Assembly (NCBI GenBank): GCA_963976765.1
Contig: CAXBME010000005.1
Coordinates: forward strand, 248,001 to 312,000
Source: an uncultured Planctomycetaceae bacterium
Lineage (GTDB): Bacteria > Planctomycetota > Planctomycetia > Planctomycetales > Planctomycetaceae
DNA length: 64,000 bases
Direction: 5' to 3'
Both the position numbers and the translations under genes were made by a program. Shown here piece after piece: positions 24,416 to 31,389 of this stretch. The notes beneath the pieces were generated by a model, which searched no databases, was not told the DNA's origin, and saw only the letters and a program-made list of their open reading frames with translations. The stretch's first letter is position 1. Each line of letters starts with the position of its first letter.

Positions 24416-24644
24416 GGCGGTTATCTTTGACGTCGTGCGGATTTATTGAGAGTTCAGGTCGATTCAGCCTCCTGCGGTGATTGCGGAAGGGCCCGAGCAC
24501 AAGACCCAGAGCGTGCGAATGGTCGCATCGATCGGTGATTTGATCAATCAACAAACCGACTCAATCAGCCCGCTCACCGTCAGAAGTTACGGTCAGCAAG
24601 AGTCGACCCGCGAAGCATCACCGTGGCATCACCCGCTGCATTTC

Positions 24645-24714
24645 AAGTCAACGGCTCATCTGTGGATTACATGGCTTGGCAGCAGTCACAAAACCGCTCT
24701 CAAGCACGACCTGC
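24645..24714 (+). pseudogene. Remnant of the 3' end of a related tyrosine integrase
   Basis: Translates KSTAHLWITWLGSSHKTALKHDL versus KYPAHVVCEWLGNSHKVALKHYL in the intact integrase (14/23 identical); catalytic Tyr replaced by Asp. Confidence 0.75.
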
Positions 24715-24716
24715 CG

Positions 24717-24832
24717 GCACCGACGAGAACCGAGTTACTCAGAAATGCAAAAAGCCCCGGAAAATCCGAGGCTTTGCTGAATGGTGCCGAGCGGTTCCGC
24801 TCTGTTCCTGTCGTAAAAGTGGGCGATGCAGG
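24717..24832. repeat. Left att direct repeat (116 bp)
   Basis: Identical to 31214-31329 except T24735/C31232; last 13 bp are the reverse complement of the tRNA-Val 3' end. Confidence 0.95.
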
Positions 24833-25124
24833 CCCAGAACATATCGACGATTTCCCGGAGAAAACTGCCATTCTCGGGAAAGGTATATCAGAACTCACTC
24901 GCGAAGAGCTGATTTCGCTTGCCAGCAGCCTCGCCGAACAGCTTGCGAAACTCGCTTCGAAACCATCATAGCCAACGTTTCAAATCTGATTCCAAAAGTT
25001 TTCTGCCTCAAGGTTACCGCATTGTTTTCAACAGACTTGAACTCTTGAATACATTCAACATCATTAAAGCAAGTGAAACCGATTGGAGATCGACAATTGT
25101 AAACTTGCTCTGACTGGAGAGGCC

Positions 25125-26699
25125 ATGAATTCCATCCAACTACAATCTACGGCAACGGCGATTCTCGGCGTGATGCTTTTCGCCTTAACCTCAACTGTCA
25201 ATGCTCAAGGCGAGAATTCGCGGGAACTATTGACCGCTGTAAAGATCGGCGAGAAGTCCTACGTTGGAGTCGTTCAAGAAAACGAAGACTCACGTTCTGA
25301 GGTTGTTCTTGAGGACGTTACAACAGGCAAAGTTCGAACGTTTCGGAAAGCACAACTTTCTGGGGAAGCTCGGCAAGTAACAGATACGGAAGCAATCGAG
25401 CTTACTGAGAACCCAGCAGCAGTCATCGCTTGGAGATTTTCAAAGTCGATTCCCAAGGGAAGTTTGCACGGAAAGGTTGCCGCCGCAACCGGAGGTCTCA
25501 TCTATACGACATTGGGAAAAGGAGAAGTTGCAGTTGGCAACGAACTCTTGGTCCATCGTGGCGAGACAGTCATCAAAGACCCGGATACTGGTGAAGTTCT
25601 TGGTCGTCAGAAGAGACTTGTCGCCAAAATTGAAGTAACTGCGATTCAGGGACGACTCTCGAAGGCAAGAGTCAAAGGTGACCTTGAGGTCGTTATTCAA
25701 GTTGGTGATCAAGTTGAGTATCAGCAGCCGAGTTCTGCGATTGCCGTACTTCCTCCAAGTGATATCAATGGGGCTGAATTCGAAGGAACAATTCATTTTG
25801 CTGACGAAGTCGTGAATCAACTTGTACGGCGAAAAGTGAAGGTAGTTGAGAGAGCAAAGCTACTGGACACCTTGGAAGAAATGGCCCTGCAATCGACATT
25901 CATTTTTGATGAAGCGACGACAGCAAGAGTCGGTAAGCAACTCGGAGCTACTCATGTAATTACTGGAAGCGTAGCCCGAGCCAGAGGAACTGGACTTACT
26001 GCCCAATTCAATATCAGGCTGGTCAATGTTGCGACTGGTCAGGTTGAGAACTCGTCTATCTTCAAGACGTATCCGTTTCGATTTGTTCCGGCTGGAGAAG
26101 CTAGATCATCAAGTTACAGCTCTGGCAGACGGCGAAAGATCGATGTATTCGAAGGGGTAAAAGCAGTAGCACCTGCAACAGAAAAGGGAAGTTGGGCAAT
26201 CGCACAAGGCGGCATCATGAATACGGCTGACCTTTCAATTATTTCTCTTCCTGTTGAAGCATCTGGCAGCTTTCAACTCGAACTTGAGATCAATCGACTG
26301 TCAGGAGACAACGCTCTGATGATCTTCTTTCCTGTAGGGTCGTCTGCTGCGTCGTATCATATTAGCCACGGCGGCCCATTTGCCGACGGGGAATACCATT
26401 GCTTGGATCACATTGACGGGCAATCTTCGTCGAAGAATGAAACACGGTCGAATGGCAGGATTCCCAACGGTCAATGGATCAAGGTTTCATTGGATGTGAG
26501 TATTCGGAGAGACAAAGCGACGATTGAAGCAACGCTGGGAGGAAAGCAGATAATCAAATGGGAAGGTGACGTGAGCAGAATTGCTCCTTCGCCAGGTTGG
26601 CATGTAGCCAACAGAAAGCAGTTTGGTTTGGGAGTTCAACGTTCAAGGGTTGCTTTTAGAAATCTCGAAATTACGGGAACTGCAAAACCTGTAAGGTGA
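25125..26699 (+). CDS. Secreted cargo protein: FlgT-C-like + CsgG/HfaB(FlgO)-like + C-terminal beta-sandwich (DUF1080-like)
   Basis: GGAGAGG RBS, signal peptide; IKDPDTGEVLG...AKIEVT...SKA; VVER..L...LEE.ALQ...DEATTARVGKQLGATHVITGS; FQLELE...VAFRNLEI. Confidence 0.7.
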   Translation: MNSIQLQSTATAILGVMLFALTSTVNAQGENSRELLTAVKIGEKSYVGVVQENEDSRSEVVLEDVTTGKVRTFRKAQLSGEARQVTDTEAIELTENPAAVIAWRFSKSIPKGSLHGKVAAATGGLIYTTLGKGEVAVGNELLVHRGETVIKDPDTGEVLGRQKRLVAKIEVTAIQGRLSKARVKGDLEVVIQVGDQVEYQQPSSAIAVLPPSDINGAEFEGTIHFADEVVNQLVRRKVKVVERAKLLDTLEEMALQSTFIFDEATTARVGKQLGATHVITGSVARARGTGLTAQFNIRLVNVATGQVENSSIFKTYPFRFVPAGEARSSSYSSGRRRKIDVFEGVKAVAPATEKGSWAIAQGGIMNTADLSIISLPVEASGSFQLELEINRLSGDNALMIFFPVGSSAASYHISHGGPFADGEYHCLDHIDGQSSSKNETRSNGRIPNGQWIKVSLDVSIRRDKATIEATLGGKQIIKWEGDVSRIAPSPGWHVANRKQFGLGVQRSRVAFRNLEITGTAKPVR

Positions 26700-26835
26700 T
26701 TTAGAGTTGGTAGACCAAATCAAAAGGTTAAGAATTCAAGGCTTCAATGAAATGTAACTGTGGGCATCTAATGAAAATGAATGCCTCGTGTATTCGTCGC
26801 CGCATTTGAGCCGCCGATTTGCGTCCGATTTCCCA

Positions 26836-27052
26836 ACTATTTCGGGAAAACTTCGAAAACTTCCCGGAATTATCCGGTAAAACGCCCACTACAGGAGCCT
26901 ATAGGGTGAGAGACGACATCGAACTTGCAGACAGCCACGTCACCGACGGTTGAGCGTCGAGTTTCCAGCAGCAGCCCTGACTATTTCGGGAAAAATTTGG
27001 AAACTTCCCGGAATTATCCGCCAAAACGTCCACCGCCAGAGCCTATAGGGTG
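26836..27052. repeat. Two 73-bp direct repeats, 144 bp apart (26836-26908, 26980-27052)
   Basis: Manual alignment gives 63/73 identity; shared blocks ACTATTTCGGGAAAA, AAACTTCCCGGAATTATCCG, GAGCCTATAGGGTG. Confidence 0.9.
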
Positions 27053-27162
27053 GGGCAGTCGATCGCGGCGGCTTTCACTCACTCTCAGTTCCGACGTTGG
27101 CACATCAGGGAACTTTGAGACTCTGGATACAGAACAGCCGTTCCGAATCCGGAAGAATTGGC

Positions 27163-27717
27163 CTGATTCGCCCGGAATCAGCTCGCACAACTACTCTTTC
27201 TCGGCATGTATTATAGAGAGCTTGTACCAACCACTTCTCTCCAACCACTCACCCCACCACCACAGCACACGCTCAGTCACAAATCGAACGAACGATTAAC
27301 TGAGCTTCCCACAGTGCTATTGGTTAGTGAAGCAGTCCCACCGTTGAACTTCAAACAGTTCAATTGATTGAGGGGAAAGCGTTCGGCTCAATTCAATCTG
27401 AGCCGCCATTGCTTTAGAGGCCAATGCTGAAGCCTCACGAAACTGATTCTTTTGCTTTCGAATCAGAAACGAAAACTGATCGCTCTGCTGATTGAATTCG
27501 TCATTCATCGACGAAAATGCAGAAGCTCAAGCTCAGTTGAAGAACCACAATCTTAGTTTCTCCTGCTTGTTTGAAGGTGACTGATTTCCGGCTTTTGCTT
27601 AGCCGTGAATGAAGGCCCCCGCCGCCTTCGGGGATGCCATCTCACCAGAGTGTGAACAAACAATACCCACCTCGCTTTCCATGTGCTGTTTCGGCTTTTG
27701 CCGGAGCAGCTTTTTTT
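27163..27717 (+). ncRNA. Candidate structured non-coding RNA/leader (or folded ssDNA signal)
   Basis: Series of 5-7 bp stems plus a 10-bp long-range pairing (27298-27307 with 27529-27538), ending in a hairpin + T7 terminator; no convincing ORF. Confidence 0.45.
27685..27717 (+). terminator. Intrinsic terminator/attenuator just upstream of the polymerase-like gene
   Basis: GCTGTTTCGGC-TTTT-GCCGGAGCAGC-TTTTTTT. Confidence 0.8.
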
Positions 27718-27750
27718 GTGTCTCGTGTTCTATCGAAAGGAAACCCAAGA

Positions 27751-29082
27751 GTGACAACATCAAAGAAAAGAGTTTTAACAGCGGCGAAGCTGATCGAGAG
27801 CAGTGCTTTTAAGAATCTCCAGCCTATTGATCTTGCCTTTCAAAGCTGGAAATCTCAGAGGATACATCAAGAGAACATCATCCTGACTCTTTGGGCAATT
27901 ATTCAAAGAAACAAATCAAGAAATGCGTTCGTCAAGATTCACAGCACGAAGCTGCTTTCATACGGAGGGACCAACTACTCAAAGTATTTAGGCTGGCTAA
28001 TCAAAGAAGGATTCATCGAGAGACGCGGCCCATACATTCCAAATCATTCAAGCTGGAAGTACCGCATTCAGGAGAAAGGCCAGCAACTTGAAGAGTACGA
28101 ACTACTGACATCCAGAAAGTTCATGCCGTCTCCCAACTTGTCATCCATGACAGAAATCGAAAGCGAGACCTATCGAAACCTGATGAACTTGAAAATCGAT
28201 TTGGCTGAAGCAGAAGCCATATTCGCTGGCATCCGGCCAGCGGCACAGATTTCAGCAAGAATGGCAATCAATGAATTCGCCAATCAATCTTTCTGTCCTT
28301 CCCAATCAAACAAGACCGGGAGGGTTTCGTCAGTTGTGACCTATATGAACTCGCCATTAAGGGCTGCACTCACTTGGCACGGCGATGAAATCATGTCGGT
28401 GGATGTTGTGAATTCTCAACCGCTTTGTCTTGCGGCGATTGCTGACTGTCCGAAGTACCAATCCATTGTTGAATCGGGCCAGATTTATGAAGAGATTCAG
28501 CAGGGCATCGGGGTATCTGAAAGAGACTTGGCAAAGACAGCGTTCATGACCTTTGCCTATGGGCCAATCTGCAATTCAAAACCTGCGACCTACGGCAGAA
28601 CAGCAGAAGAGATTGCCCTCAACGATCCAGTCAAAAGAAAGTCGATCACTCGAAAAGCGGCCAGACTCAGAAAGAAAGGATTAGCAGTTCCTGATGAAGC
28701 AGCATTGAAAAAGAAACTCGAAACGAAGCGACTCAAGAAAGAACTCAGGGCCAGAACAGCAGAGTTCTTCAGAACGAAGTTTCCGAAAGCTGTCAAAGTT
28801 CTGGATTCGCTGAAGAGTGGATCGACCGAAAAGCCATATCGAAAAGCAGCATGGAAACTACAGCAGATTGAAGCCGAAGCCGTTATCGAAAGCTGCTTTC
28901 TGCCTTTGGCCCGGAAAGAGATTCCAGTGCTAAGCGTTCATGATTGCTTGCTTACAACGCCAGCCAGTGTAAGTGCCGTTGAGAATGCAATGTCAAAGGA
29001 GATAGCGGCTCACCTTGGCAAGATTGCTGGCCGAAAATGCGTGGTTGAACTCAAGACTACGAAATGGAGAAAACCTACCTAG
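27751..29082 (+). CDS. Minimal family-A-polymerase-like protein (wHTH-like N-terminus + palm/fingers, no exonuclease domain)
   Basis: TGRVSS, motif A-like SVDVVNSQP, motif B-like RDLAKTAFMTFAYG, LQQIEA, motif C-like LSVHDCLL; GTG start at 27751 after AAAGGA (443 aa). Confidence 0.75.
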   Translation: MTTSKKRVLTAAKLIESSAFKNLQPIDLAFQSWKSQRIHQENIILTLWAIIQRNKSRNAFVKIHSTKLLSYGGTNYSKYLGWLIKEGFIERRGPYIPNHSSWKYRIQEKGQQLEEYELLTSRKFMPSPNLSSMTEIESETYRNLMNLKIDLAEAEAIFAGIRPAAQISARMAINEFANQSFCPSQSNKTGRVSSVVTYMNSPLRAALTWHGDEIMSVDVVNSQPLCLAAIADCPKYQSIVESGQIYEEIQQGIGVSERDLAKTAFMTFAYGPICNSKPATYGRTAEEIALNDPVKRKSITRKAARLRKKGLAVPDEAALKKKLETKRLKKELRARTAEFFRTKFPKAVKVLDSLKSGSTEKPYRKAAWKLQQIEAEAVIESCFLPLARKEIPVLSVHDCLLTTPASVSAVENAMSKEIAAHLGKIAGRKCVVELKTTKWRKPT

Positions 29083-29266
29083 AACAAGAATAGAGAGAGA
29101 AGAGAGAGGGCTGCACCTAGGGTCTATGTTTTTCGTTTTGACAGATTTCGCCTCGTCACTGCGAGCATTGGCCGTGCCGACTGATCGATCACGGTCGAAC
29201 AACAGAAAGGAGAGTAAGCAATGACCTGACAAAGAATCACTGACTGAAAATCACGAAGTTGTGTTG

Positions 29267-29297
29267 GCCTCCCAGAATGGTCTGGAGAGGCTTTTTT
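29267..29297 (+). terminator. Intrinsic terminator
   Basis: GCCTCCCAGA-ATGG-TCTGGAGAGGC-TTTTTT. Confidence 0.75.
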
Positions 29298-29325
29298 CGT
29301 TTACCCGACTATTGAAGGATGTTTT

Positions 29326-29679
29326 ATGAGTTTGAATTCAAGTGAAGCAGCATGGTTAAGAAAAGTGCTGTTCATCATTGCCACGTATCATGATCAATGT
29401 GTAGCCCAAGCAGAGAAGGCTGGAGATCGTGCTGGAGTGAAGTATCACGCGGCAAAAGCGATTTGGTCTCGTGCTATTGGCGAGAACGCTGAATTTCGAC
29501 AAGGCGTGGAAACTGAAGAACTACGCGAGCTGGCTGGAGAACTGAGCGATCAAAGAAACCGGAGCTTGGAGTCTCTCGAATCAGGCGGAGAAGAATTGAT
29601 TGCAACGGAAACCAAAGAGCAATCAGAGATTGCTGAGTTCTGCCGGATCATGGAAAGGAGATGCCAAGAGAATATGTAG
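29326..29679 (+). CDS. Hypothetical helical protein (element-encoded)
   Basis: 117-aa ORF with GAAGGA RBS, flanked by terminators; no family recognised. Confidence 0.65.
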   Translation: MSLNSSEAAWLRKVLFIIATYHDQCVAQAEKAGDRAGVKYHAAKAIWSRAIGENAEFRQGVETEELRELAGELSDQRNRSLESLESGGEELIATETKEQSEIAEFCRIMERRCQENM

Positions 29680-29741
29680 CGTGAAAGCTGACTACTACGA
29701 ACTTATTCGCTGATTGATTTTCAGCATCGATATTGATTTTG

Positions 29742-29777
29742 CCCCGGTACAGAAGCCTCTGTTTCCGGGGTTTCTTT
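29742..29777 (+). terminator. Intrinsic terminator upstream of xis-int
   Basis: CCCCGG.ACAGA-AGCC-TCTGT..CCGGGG-TTTCTTT. Confidence 0.65.
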
Positions 29778-29823
29778 ATTTCATGTGTTTGTTTTTTCAG
29801 ATTACTCAAGAAGGATATTTCTA

Positions 29824-30069
29824 ATGAATGACGATGTTTCTAAAATTACCTTCGAACAGAGTTTGAGTCAGTCTTCAACTGACCAAACCGTATCTCGCAG
29901 CGATGTGAGCTTGCTGTCGAAGAAAGATATTTCCTGCCTGTTCCAGATCAGTGAACGACAAGTCACGAATCTGATGAAGACCCCCCGATTTCCGAAGAAG
30001 ATTAAGGGGCTTGGCAGAAGCGTTCGGTTCTCAGCCTCAGCGGTGAAGGAGTTCGTACAGAATGGCTAG
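29824..30069 (+). CDS. AlpA/excisionase-like HTH protein
   Basis: LLSKKDISCLFQISERQVTNLMKTPRFPKKIKGLGRSVRFS...VKEFV; overlaps integrase start by 8 nt. Confidence 0.85.
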   Translation: MNDDVSKITFEQSLSQSSTDQTVSRSDVSLLSKKDISCLFQISERQVTNLMKTPRFPKKIKGLGRSVRFSASAVKEFVQNG

Positions 30070-31357
30070 TCTTACCCAAACTCCAAAGGGACCGAAGATT
30101 CAACTGATTTGCCCAGACGGGAAACGACGCCCGATTTATCTGGGTGCGAAACTTACGAAACGACAAGCTGAATCTGTGCTGAGCTACGTCGAAAGATTGG
30201 CTCACTCTGTCGAAAGTAACACAGTTCCAGAGAGAGAAGTTTCTAAATGGCTCGGGGAAGTTCCCGAGAAACTCTATAAGAAGCTGGTTACATGTGGACT
30301 TGCAACGGCTCGTGAGAAGATCGTGAGCCAAACAATCGAGCGTCTGATTTCAGACTATGTGGCAAGTCGAAATGGAGTCGCAGAATCGACGATAGCCAGA
30401 TGGACGACTGTGACGAATCACCTGTTTGCCTACTTTGGAAAAGAGAAGCCATTAACCGAAGTGACGGCAGGGGATGCTGATGACTTCAGTGAGTATTTGA
30501 AGTCAAAAGGCACTGCTGACAACAGCCGCAGAAGATATCTCGGAATCGCAAAGCAATTCTTTACATGGGCTGTCCGCCACAAGCTGATTGCGGAGAATCC
30601 ATTTGCTGATCAGAAGACCTCAGTTGGTGACAGTGATCCCAAACGGCAGTTCTTCGTAGATCGCGAGTTGTCAGAAAGAATTCTTGAAACCTGCCCGGAT
30701 TCAGAATGGAAGCTGATCTTTGCTCTGATGAGGTTTGGCGGTTTACGTTGTCCAACAGAAGTTCTGAATCTTCGATGGGAAGACATTCTTTGGGGTAAGT
30801 CTCGATTTCGTATCTACAGTCAGAAGACAGATCAAACGAGATACTGTCCGATCTTTCCGGAACTCCTGCCGTATCTAAGTTCAAGTTTTGAATTAGCTGA
30901 TGACGGTGAAGAATTCGTGATTTCAAAACGACACGGGATGACGCATCGAGGATTGATTGCTCAGTACAAACGAATCCTGCATTTTGCTGCCGTAGATCAG
31001 TACCCGAAGCTGTTTCAGAATCTGCGGTCCACCAGACAGACGGAATTGACCCGTAAGTACCCGGCTCACGTCGTCTGTGAATGGCTCGGTAACAGTCATA
31101 AAGTCGCTCTGAAGCACTACCTGCAAGTTACAGACGAGGATTTCGAGGCGGCAGCCGCAAAAGTAGATCACTTGCCCGAAAAAGTAGATCACATAGTAGA
31201 TCAGCACCCGCACGCACCGACGAGAACCGAGCTACTCAGAAATGCAAAAAGCCCCGGAAAATCCGAGGCTTTGCTGAATGGTGCCGAGCGGTTCCGCTCT
31301 GTTCCTGTCGTAAAAGTGGGCGATGCAGGAATCGAACCTGCGACTTCCACCGTGTGA
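30062..31357 (+). CDS. Tyrosine recombinase/integrase
   Basis: SAM-like core-binding domain (ENPF), catalytic GGLRCPTE, SQKT, FQNLRST, WLGNS, KHYL; 3' end reads through the att repeat into antisense tRNA. Confidence 0.95.
   Translation: MASLTQTPKGPKIQLICPDGKRRPIYLGAKLTKRQAESVLSYVERLAHSVESNTVPEREVSKWLGEVPEKLYKKLVTCGLATAREKIVSQTIERLISDYVASRNGVAESTIARWTTVTNHLFAYFGKEKPLTEVTAGDADDFSEYLKSKGTADNSRRRYLGIAKQFFTWAVRHKLIAENPFADQKTSVGDSDPKRQFFVDRELSERILETCPDSEWKLIFALMRFGGLRCPTEVLNLRWEDILWGKSRFRIYSQKTDQTRYCPIFPELLPYLSSSFELADDGEEFVISKRHGMTHRGLIAQYKRILHFAAVDQYPKLFQNLRSTRQTELTRKYPAHVVCEWLGNSHKVALKHYLQVTDEDFEAAAAKVDHLPEKVDHIVDQHPHAPTRTELLRNAKSPGKSEALLNGAERFRSVPVVKVGDAGIEPATSTV
31159..31204. repeat. Three AGTAGATCA direct repeats, putative integrase arm-type sites
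   Basis: AAAAGTAGATCAC x2 then TAGTAGATCAG, inside the integrase 3' end next to the att repeat. Confidence 0.65.
31214..31329. repeat. Right att direct repeat (116 bp)
   Basis: Copy of 24717-24832; overlaps the tRNA 3' end and includes hairpin AAAGCCCCGGA-AAA-TCCGAGGCTTT, a likely minus-strand tRNA terminator. Confidence 0.95.
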
Positions 31358-31389
31358 AGATGGCACTCTAGCCGCTGAGTTAATCGCCC
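31317..31389 (-). tRNA. tRNA-Val (anticodon CAC)
   Basis: Reverse complement GGGCGATTAACTCAGCGGCTAGAGTGCCATCTTCACACGGTGGAAGTCGCAGGTTCGATTCCTGCATCGCCCA folds as a cloverleaf; CCA not encoded. Confidence 0.96.

Follow-up and report, generated by a model that had tools for sequence, protein, structure and literature searches.

What does a polymerase gene do on an integrative element of only 6.5 kb, and does its presence make the element a new kind of replicon? The question is raised by positions 24717 to 31389 of a 64,000-nt stretch of DNA (the window) from an uncultured Planctomycetaceae bacterium, contig CAXBME010000005.1. There, a gene for a DNA polymerase I (PolA)-like protein, referred to here as pol, lies between attachment (att) repeats at a tRNA-Val gene, together with a cargo gene, a small open reading frame (ORF117) and the genes for an excisionase-like protein (Xis) and a tyrosine integrase (Int). 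An original prediction, made from the sequence alone, had proposed an undescribed class of small integrative replicon or satellite. The data presented below argue instead for an element of the Transposon-Virus polymerase (TV-Pol) type, in which pol would be an exchangeable, origin-specific primase or initiator working like the Rep protein of ColE2. The probability of this reading is put at roughly 0.55.

Replication proteins in the position of pol

The main argument for a role of pol in replication is provided by other elements of the same genome. At 11 integrase loci of the host, the slot corresponding to pol holds a DUF3987 helicase-type protein (two loci), an ATPase whose Walker motifs were recognised by eye (one), a zinc-ribbon primase-helicase (one), a Pfam PolA protein (two), an AAA fragment (one) or nothing recognisable (four). 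A helicase- or primase-type protein or an ordinary PolA was thus present at 6 of the 11 loci. Because this slot is filled by replication proteins in sibling elements, a replication role would be expected for pol as well, and its placement in the position of a replication gene, as first proposed, is upheld.

An element in another genome of the same genus occupies the same tRNA-Val(CAC) gene, with an integrase that is 84% identical, an Xis that is 65% identical and an ORF117 homologue that is 33% identical to those of the window. A block of 1.5 kb, positions 27684-29192, is missing from this sister, both flanks of the block being homologous (score of 100 versus a shuffled maximum of 39). As judged from the sequence, the sister is without exactly the block of pol plus the candidate site described below; no such sister was found in the literature searches. 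The assembly concerned is 79% complete and in 920 contigs.

The pol family was present in 48 of the 401 genomes of the host's class, and also in named Bacteroidota, Ignavibacteria, Chlorobi and Verrucomicrobia records. Flanking sequences were examined for 40 of the 63 non-self host-class matches (mostly the best-scoring, full-length ones) and for 33 further loci. A tyrosine integrase was found within 5 kb of pol at 22 of the 40 and 21 of the 33 loci, i.e. at 43 of 73 (one a duplicate), whereas only 4.2% of positions drawn at random from the host genome have one so close. The profile used for integrases came from these very loci, and it found 36 integrase frames in the host; locus L112 has the same sequence as the window and gives no independent evidence. 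In addition, 16 homologues lie between att repeats that are 3-29 kb apart. The association of the family with integrases and att sites, which the original prediction required, is apparent. The recurrence of the order pol-Xis-Int elsewhere was seen in part: pol is followed by a co-oriented integrase at a distance of no more than 1.4 kb at 10 of the 40 host-class loci, with a helix-turn-helix (HTH) gene between them in six.

Neighbouring proteins, called heuristically, were scanned against Pfam (147 + 140 + 134 = 421 proteins; one near-duplicate locus, many small frames excluded). Integrases, two serine recombinases, restriction systems with helicase subunits, Bro-N proteins and one terminase, situated outside its element, were found, and restriction-modification and other defence genes abound around the homologues. 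Among the 421 proteins there was no match to a primase, a D5 or DUF3987 helicase, a capsid, a relaxase or an exonuclease family.

Some loci are of interest in their own right. Ordinary Pfam PolA genes, encoding 605 and 707 residues, stand beside an integrase in two tRNA elements of the host (L120:2828-4642 and L124:2322-4442). A 706-residue protein with an HNH domain and a Cas9-type lobe (IscB/Cas9-like, cut by the contig end) is encoded in a tRNA-Val element (L063:11477-13594), at a distance of some 2 kb from the pol homologue there, and a 916-residue protein with an ATPase and a Topo VI-type Toprim domain adjoins a pol homologue and an integrase (L055:4457-7204).

The polymerase protein

Structural comparisons were made with a predicted model of the pol product (predicted local distance difference test, pLDDT, 89.5). 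A Foldseek search retrieved T7 DNA polymerase and Pol I, and all of the top 50 matches were DNA polymerases. In a wider structural search the Klenow fragment was aligned over 255 residues, in the range 125-441, with a Z score of 15.2 and a root-mean-square deviation (rmsd) of 3.3. A two-helix thumb (helices within 135-178) precedes the Arg hairpin and lies in the part aligned with Pol I. Residues 15-121 gave many winged-helix matches at Z of about 6, individually middling but consistent with one another and in agreement with a weak Pfam match to HTH_45. According to the model, the protein is a winged helix joined to an exonuclease-less family-A core with intact catalytic residues, and the first description of the gene as PolA-like is confirmed at the level of fold. 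At the level of sequence, nothing significant was found in solved structures for pol or for a profile of 137 sequences, no Pfam family was above the cut-off for pol, and no NCBIfam model fell below E 0.02 for the family members scanned.

The 137-member alignment consisted of 150 listed hits plus seeds, filtered for length. Residues R191, D218, K262, E374, H397 and D398 are invariant in all 137 members; in the RxxxK motif of the fingers, R258 is present in 109 and K262 in all. The sugar-gate position, five residues after the motif-A Asp, is occupied by Gln in 135 of the 137, which is DNA-polymerase-like. Pol I has a ribonucleotide-excluding Glu at this position and T7 RNA polymerase a Gly. Close relatives are few (three among 5.8 billion proteins), and a profile search yielded 2,182 family clusters at E≤0.001. 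An insert of about 55 residues, rich in Lys and Arg and helical, lies between motif B and the FP motif (28567-28740) in the clade of the window and is lacking in most other members; an additional contact with DNA is one possible role.

A candidate cis-site

The loop that follows motif A differs widely in length across the family, between about 15 and 200 residues. In 51 loci this loop was enriched for TATGTT (12 occurrences versus 1.8 expected), and a motif sampler gave a consensus near TTCCATTATGTT, situated behind a strand-biased tract, with an information content of 8.9 bits versus 7.5-7.6 in three codon-shuffled controls. The 24 good intragenic sites fall in all three reading frames (11/7/6), and for 21 of them the distance to the next helix is 57-87 nt. 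In a motif-only leave-one-out test, which was seeded with a 5-mer from all of the data, 16 of 40 long loops reached p≤0.1 (4 expected). The motif exceeded codon-shuffled loops in 14 of 40, and 5 of 12 held-out genes passed the motif test. Among 87 long-loop proteins taken from a search of representative sequences, a frame-2 peptide trace was observed in 16 (shuffle mean 2.6, maximum 8), and the frame-0 (13 versus 6.5) and frame-1 (3 versus 1.2) traces were not clearly above chance. All of these statistics ignore relatedness among the sequences. In a homologue from a huge phage (L200), the tract and motif were recognised inside the gene by eye.

In the window, a purine tract and CTATGTT are found directly behind the pol stop codon. 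Of the element's 211 tiles, this post-stop tile was the most similar to the intragenic sites of the homologues; in a pol homologue of 62% identity the C-terminal peptide looks like a translation of such a tract and motif, and the sister element has neither pol nor the site. These observations lend modest support to the segment as a candidate origin or priming site that would travel with the pol gene. Literature searches gave nothing relevant on an intragenic site, a planctomycete split integrase or this gene order; subscription papers were largely outside their scope, and the supplement of the TV-Pol paper may list such neighbourhoods.

Element boundaries and target site

The element is bounded by a pair of 116-nt direct repeats with one mismatch and a spacing of 6,497 bp, which can be extended to 124 nt at 97% identity. 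Of each 116-nt repeat, 14 nt represent the tRNA 3' end and the other 102 nt are integrase-type 3' sequence. The G+C content is 47.2% within the element and 56.4% on both flanks. The genes on the flanks, and relatives with names, point to a planctomycete as the host. Together with the integrase, the Xis-like gene and the overlap with the tRNA, these features bear out a small tRNA-Val integrative element. The parts had been described as all co-oriented, which holds for the five protein genes, on the plus strand, and fails for the tRNA, which is antisense to them.

Immediately outside the left repeat lies a relic of the 3' end of an older, related integrase. With the element integrase as tblastn query it is 52% identical over residues 321-425, repeat included, and its translation has Asp at the position of the catalytic Tyr. 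Host-like left-flank sequence common to two genomes of the genus ends at 24552-24592. Because 102 nt of the repeat are of integrase type and the relic lies to the left of it, the tRNA-Val site had evidently been occupied in tandem before. No empty site was seen in relatives: in five stretches the gene of the left flank, which we take to be yebC-like, is not followed by tRNA-Val, the contig running out within 5 kb in three of the five.

Relation to known systems

TV-Pols were defined by Iyer, Abhiman and Aravind in 2008 as family-A polymerases that are devoid of the exonuclease (PMC2579912). A subset has an extra N-terminal domain and is found beside lambda-type integrases, resolvases and restriction operons; Rhodopirellula and Gemmata are among the species listed, and the proteins were predicted to be primase-polymerases (PMC2579912). 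The family described here resembles them in size (400-600 residues), in its minimal family-A core with the Arg hairpin, two Asp, RxxxK and no nuclease, in having an extra N-terminal domain, in its links to tyrosine integrases, resolvases, Bro-N/KilA-C proteins and restriction operons (here at L056, L077, L066, L099 and others), and in its planctomycete and Bacteroidetes hosts. All six of the structural and contextual TV-Pol traits that were tested were found: the Arg hairpin (R191), the two Asp (D218 and D398), RxxxK, the thumb, the lack of a nuclease and the neighbourhood. There are also differences. The N-terminal domain is here a winged helix and not all-helical, and the main text of PMC2579912 names no origin, no tRNA-att anatomy and no switch of the integrase tail.

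The sequence link to the proteins of that paper is weak. Ma-LMM01 gave no match in the genome search. Its ORF30, presumed to be a TV-Pol reference, aligned weakly in the N-terminal part (E 0.004, probability 9%); it ranked first of 181 ORFs, at E 0.83 (about 149 of 162 kb covered), and its model was poor (pLDDT 57, with only coiled-coil matches). On the six traits, the element is most likely of TV-Pol type and so most likely belongs to a family already described. The proposal of an undescribed class is accordingly abandoned, as TV-Pol elements beside integrases have been described (PMC2579912), and nothing supports a satellite, packaging-type genes being absent. No assay of the winged-helix TV-Pol branch was found in the literature searches.

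Pipolins and the P4 and phage-inducible chromosomal island (PICI) satellites are small integrase-bearing elements at tRNA genes that have their own replication gene. The family-B polymerase of pipolins is absent here, fold and motifs being those of family A. The primase-helicase and packaging-interference genes of P4 and PICIs are likewise absent among the five genes, as judged by Pfam and PHROGs, in which ORF117 is without a family.

CcPol-MP, or PolA-SSB, of SCCmec and Bacillota is likewise a family-A core on an integrative element; with its partner MP, CcPol is a proven primase capable of primer-independent synthesis and a distant relative of TV-Pol (PMC10061031). It differs in that it needs the partner, which has an oligonucleotide-binding (OB) fold, and sits with a helicase and serine recombinases (PMC10061031, PMC7581432). 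Neither an OB-fold partner nor an operon helicase was found in the element, ORF117 showing helical folds only. The element is not a pipolin, a PICI or a CcPol-MP system.

The divPolA2 proteins of barbaviruses and Vibrio phages are similar in length (about 430 residues), in an exonuclease-less palm with an N-terminal globular domain and in their structural matches to both Pol I and mitochondrial RNA polymerase, and differ in being phage-borne, in variable contexts and with different motifs (PMC11348598). A barbavirus protein was matched by the pol structure at E 1.6e-8 and a template modelling (TM) score of 0.35, and the representative AUR84708, the only one compared, gave a weak profile match (E 7e-4, probability 27%). 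By sequence, divPolA2 is a distant look-alike. In the case of ColE2 Rep, one protein binds the origin and makes the primer that host Pol I extends; that protein is an archaeo-eukaryotic primase on a plasmid, whereas here a family-A palm is on an integrative element (PMC4538821).

Proposed mechanism and alternatives

Under the preferred reading, Int and Xis would excise a 6.5-kb circle, and excision would exchange the 8-residue tail of the integrase for a 45-residue helical tail, with a probable effect on its activity like that in phage Mx8. The winged helix would bind a specific site that travels with the gene, within the variable loop in many homologues and just behind the stop codon here. 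The polymerase core would then lay a primer for extension by host enzymes, in a scheme like that of ColE2 Rep with the family-A palm replacing the archaeo-eukaryotic primase. The polymerase block would be exchangeable, and dispensable for holding the tRNA-Val site. A broader claim, that winged-helix family-A proteins are widespread helicase-free one-protein initiators, with the tract plus TATGTT as an origin in or behind the gene, forming a cassette portable among integrative elements, plasmids and huge phages, is advanced tentatively and with considerable doubt.

Several observations weigh against the initiator reading. In the sister element, which is without a polymerase, the counterpart of 27555-27683 is followed with hardly a gap by that of the sequence from about 29193. 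Homologues are found on two plasmids, each with an ordinary Rep and ParA, and huge phages also encode them; neither plasmid homologue has a significant motif. The motif-only test failed for 24 of the 40 long loops. The pol of the window is itself without a long loop, its own site gave no strong hit with the matrix, and the margin of the post-stop tile is small (43 versus 38 for the best non-overlapping tile). No circle or empty-site junction was found in the contigs of three sequencing runs, although contigs cannot show absence. Lastly, two features of the protein are shared with RNA polymerases: yeast mitochondrial RNA polymerase ties with Klenow in the structural search (Z 14.7, rmsd 6.0, 355 residues, range 1-435), and motif C is HDS, HDC, HDA or HDG in 137 of 137 members and never HDE.

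These last features bear on the best of the alternatives, itself unlikely, namely that pol is a minimal single-subunit RNA polymerase and the DNA motif its promoter, from which the genes of the element would be transcribed or an RNA primer made. Motif C is of the form HD[S/C] in 125 of 137 members and DxxGR is present in 30; the motif B of the window, KTAFMTFAYG, aligns closely with that of N4 RNA polymerase, and T7 RNA polymerase is also close at this motif. Structural alignments to the mitochondrial and N4 RNA polymerases extend over the whole length, and the same option was raised for divPolA2 by Yutin et al. (PMC11348598). The Gln at the sugar gate, the uniformly DNA polymerase matches in Foldseek and the exchange of the slot with replication proteins argue the other way.

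A further account, slightly less probable again, makes pol and its site a selfish cassette, able to move into other mobile elements or to place copies of itself there, with the element as a mere host. Replicative transposons were indeed proposed in 2008 (PMC2579912). The clean absence of the 1.5-kb block from the sister, between homologous flanks, would be as expected, as would homologues on Rep-bearing plasmids and in huge phages and the 18 of 40 host-class loci without a tyrosine integrase within 5 kb. However, the sequence around the block showed neither terminal repeats nor a target duplication, the host genome has a single copy of pol, and the sister, known from an incomplete and fragmented assembly, may have lost the block.

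It is improbable that pol is the complete replicase of the element, able to prime and copy the circle unaided in the manner of piPolB in pipolins. The lack of replicative helicase and primase families among the 421 neighbours and the prediction of TV-Pols as primase-polymerases (PMC2579912) are set against a protein without an exonuclease, with a short thumb in the model and no processivity or strand-displacement domain seen, in elements of up to 29 kb. Least probable is an accessory role in the repair of excision or integration intermediates, or as anti-phage cargo, with the motif a by-product of a low-complexity loop and no part in initiation: the defence-rich neighbourhoods, the dispensability of pol in the sister and motif evidence that is partial and inflated by relatedness fit it, but the spacing of the motif is kept despite frame changes, the motif beats codon-shuffled loops in 14 of 40 cases and pol occupies a Rep slot.

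TV-Pols were predicted in 2008; what is added here, namely the candidate site, the sister without pol and the tail of the integrase, makes this element a useful test case. The candidate site, of 60 bp, turns the choice between primase, RNA polymerase and replicase into a direct test of binding and priming. If the initiator reading is true, a primase so compact and specific for its origin could be used to build minimal replicons for bacteria of the Planctomycetes-Verrucomicrobia-Chlamydiae (PVC) group and Bacteroidota.

The C-terminal tail of the integrase

The integrase frame crosses the right att repeat and ends antisense inside the tRNA-Val gene. This arrangement is common: in the host genome and the host-class loci, overlap with a tRNA was seen for 22 integrase frames, 21 of them antisense to it. 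When the circle is computed for four elements of the host, a helical tail with the pattern W-x-x-L is added from the far end of the element, in frame and with no other frame (G000 contigs C16:322-14600, C16:116967-126850, C2:205999-212080 and C21:132060-141510). The tail of the window resembles that of the family by eye and is without a match to the tail profile. In-frame tails were obtained for 5 of 5 held-out elements from other genomes with an att pair of at least 18 nt; three match the profile, one has the motif by eye and one is a variant without the Trp. Loci with this arrangement, their flanking sequence extended, are L051, L059, L060, L068 and L071. The att pair search gave none for C4 (where the tail is present), C30, C40, L063 and L072, and C17 has a doubtful 14-nt repeat without the tail motif.

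An att site inside an integrase gene has been described for phage Mx8 and termed rare (PMC4701971). In Mx8, attP lies within the gene for a tyrosine integrase, whose C-terminus is replaced on integration (PMC4701971). The same trait is found here, from the sequence: att is inside the 3' end of the integrase gene, and recombination changes the C-terminus. Mx8 exchanges 112 residues for 13, whereas here a short, conserved helical tail comes from the far end of the element, and does so in many planctomycete elements. It is predicted that planctomycete integrases ending antisense in their target tRNA would regain a conserved C-terminal tail on excision, in a family-wide, Mx8-like switch. An integrase of this family that is cloned from an integrated element would come without the conserved C-terminal piece.

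Other features of the element

The features are collected in Table 1. The five genes of the element gave no match to capsid, relaxase, primase or helicase families in Pfam or PHROGs, and the only terminase matches were weak ones to small-subunit PHROGs (E 0.3 for pol, E 0.0018 for the Xis-like protein). The absence of such genes and the Xis-then-Int module thus stand as first described. The cargo is probably secreted, its signal peptide having been judged by eye, with a CsgG/LpoB/FlgO-like domain and a C-terminal lectin- or hydrolase-like domain.

Table 1. Features of the tRNA-Val element and its left flank, in window coordinates
Feature	Position	Strand	Basis or remarks
Relic of older related integrase 3' end	24579..24716	+	Immediately outside left repeat
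Left att repeat	24717..24832	+	Repeat comparison
Putative 45-codon helical tail	24833..24971	+	In-silico circle junction; replaces 8 tRNA-derived integrase residues
Cargo, 524 aa	25125..26699	+	Pfam LpoB 1e-6; CsgG/FlgO and 3-keto-disaccharide hydrolase weak
Two 73-nt direct repeats, 86% identical	26836-26908, 26980-27052	+	Non-coding kilobase upstream of pol
pol, 443 aa, probably TV-Pol-type	27751..29082	+	Winged helix ~15-121; minimal family-A core 125-441; no exonuclease; start codon chosen from starts of homologues
Candidate cis-site	29083..29140	+	Purine tract then CTATGTT, right after pol stop codon
ORF117, small protein	29326..29679	+	No Pfam/PHROG family; look-alike structures are helical proteins
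Xis-like HTH protein	29824..30069	+	Pfam HTH_17 3e-4; PHROG excisionase 2e-4
Tyrosine integrase	30062..31357	+	Pfam 3.9e-9; phrog_1 7e-31
Right att repeat	31214..31329	+	Repeat comparison; overlaps tRNA-Val(CAC) 3' end
tRNA-Val(CAC), intact, integration target	31316..31389	-	tRNA scan position

A region of repeats and structure had been proposed upstream of pol. The repeats are present, as a 73-nt pair with copies 144 bp apart, and the structure is not, the region folding no more stably than shuffled sequences (z -0.89). As iterons of the family the repeats were rejected: similar pairs were found in 2 of 58 upstream regions (window included) and 4 of 58 downstream regions, versus 7 of 299 random windows. 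A 16-mer from the repeats matched 60 viral contigs, with a polymerase near none, and the T7-promoter-like TATAGGG within them was not enriched (3 of 58 upstream and 4 of 58 downstream regions). A promoter scan gave 1 site versus 2.8 expected. At the 3' end of the integrase gene, just ahead of the att repeat (31155-31192), a 17-nt tandem repeat with a spacing of 21 was observed; its copies are possibly arm-type binding sites.

Members of the pol family were observed in huge phages of 595-735 kb (L200, which is LR756511; LR756501-LR756504; LR745206). In a run of a second study (X3), low-depth contigs match pieces of the cargo, spacer and pol (window 25394-28551) at 95-99.7%, and pieces of the host flank at only about 85-88%, a weak hint of a near-identical element in another host background. 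Lastly, the host genome contains an array of 38 tRNAs in about 5 kb (G000 C5:82893-88140), with similar runs on two other contigs (C27:60-1338 and C74:74-1224).

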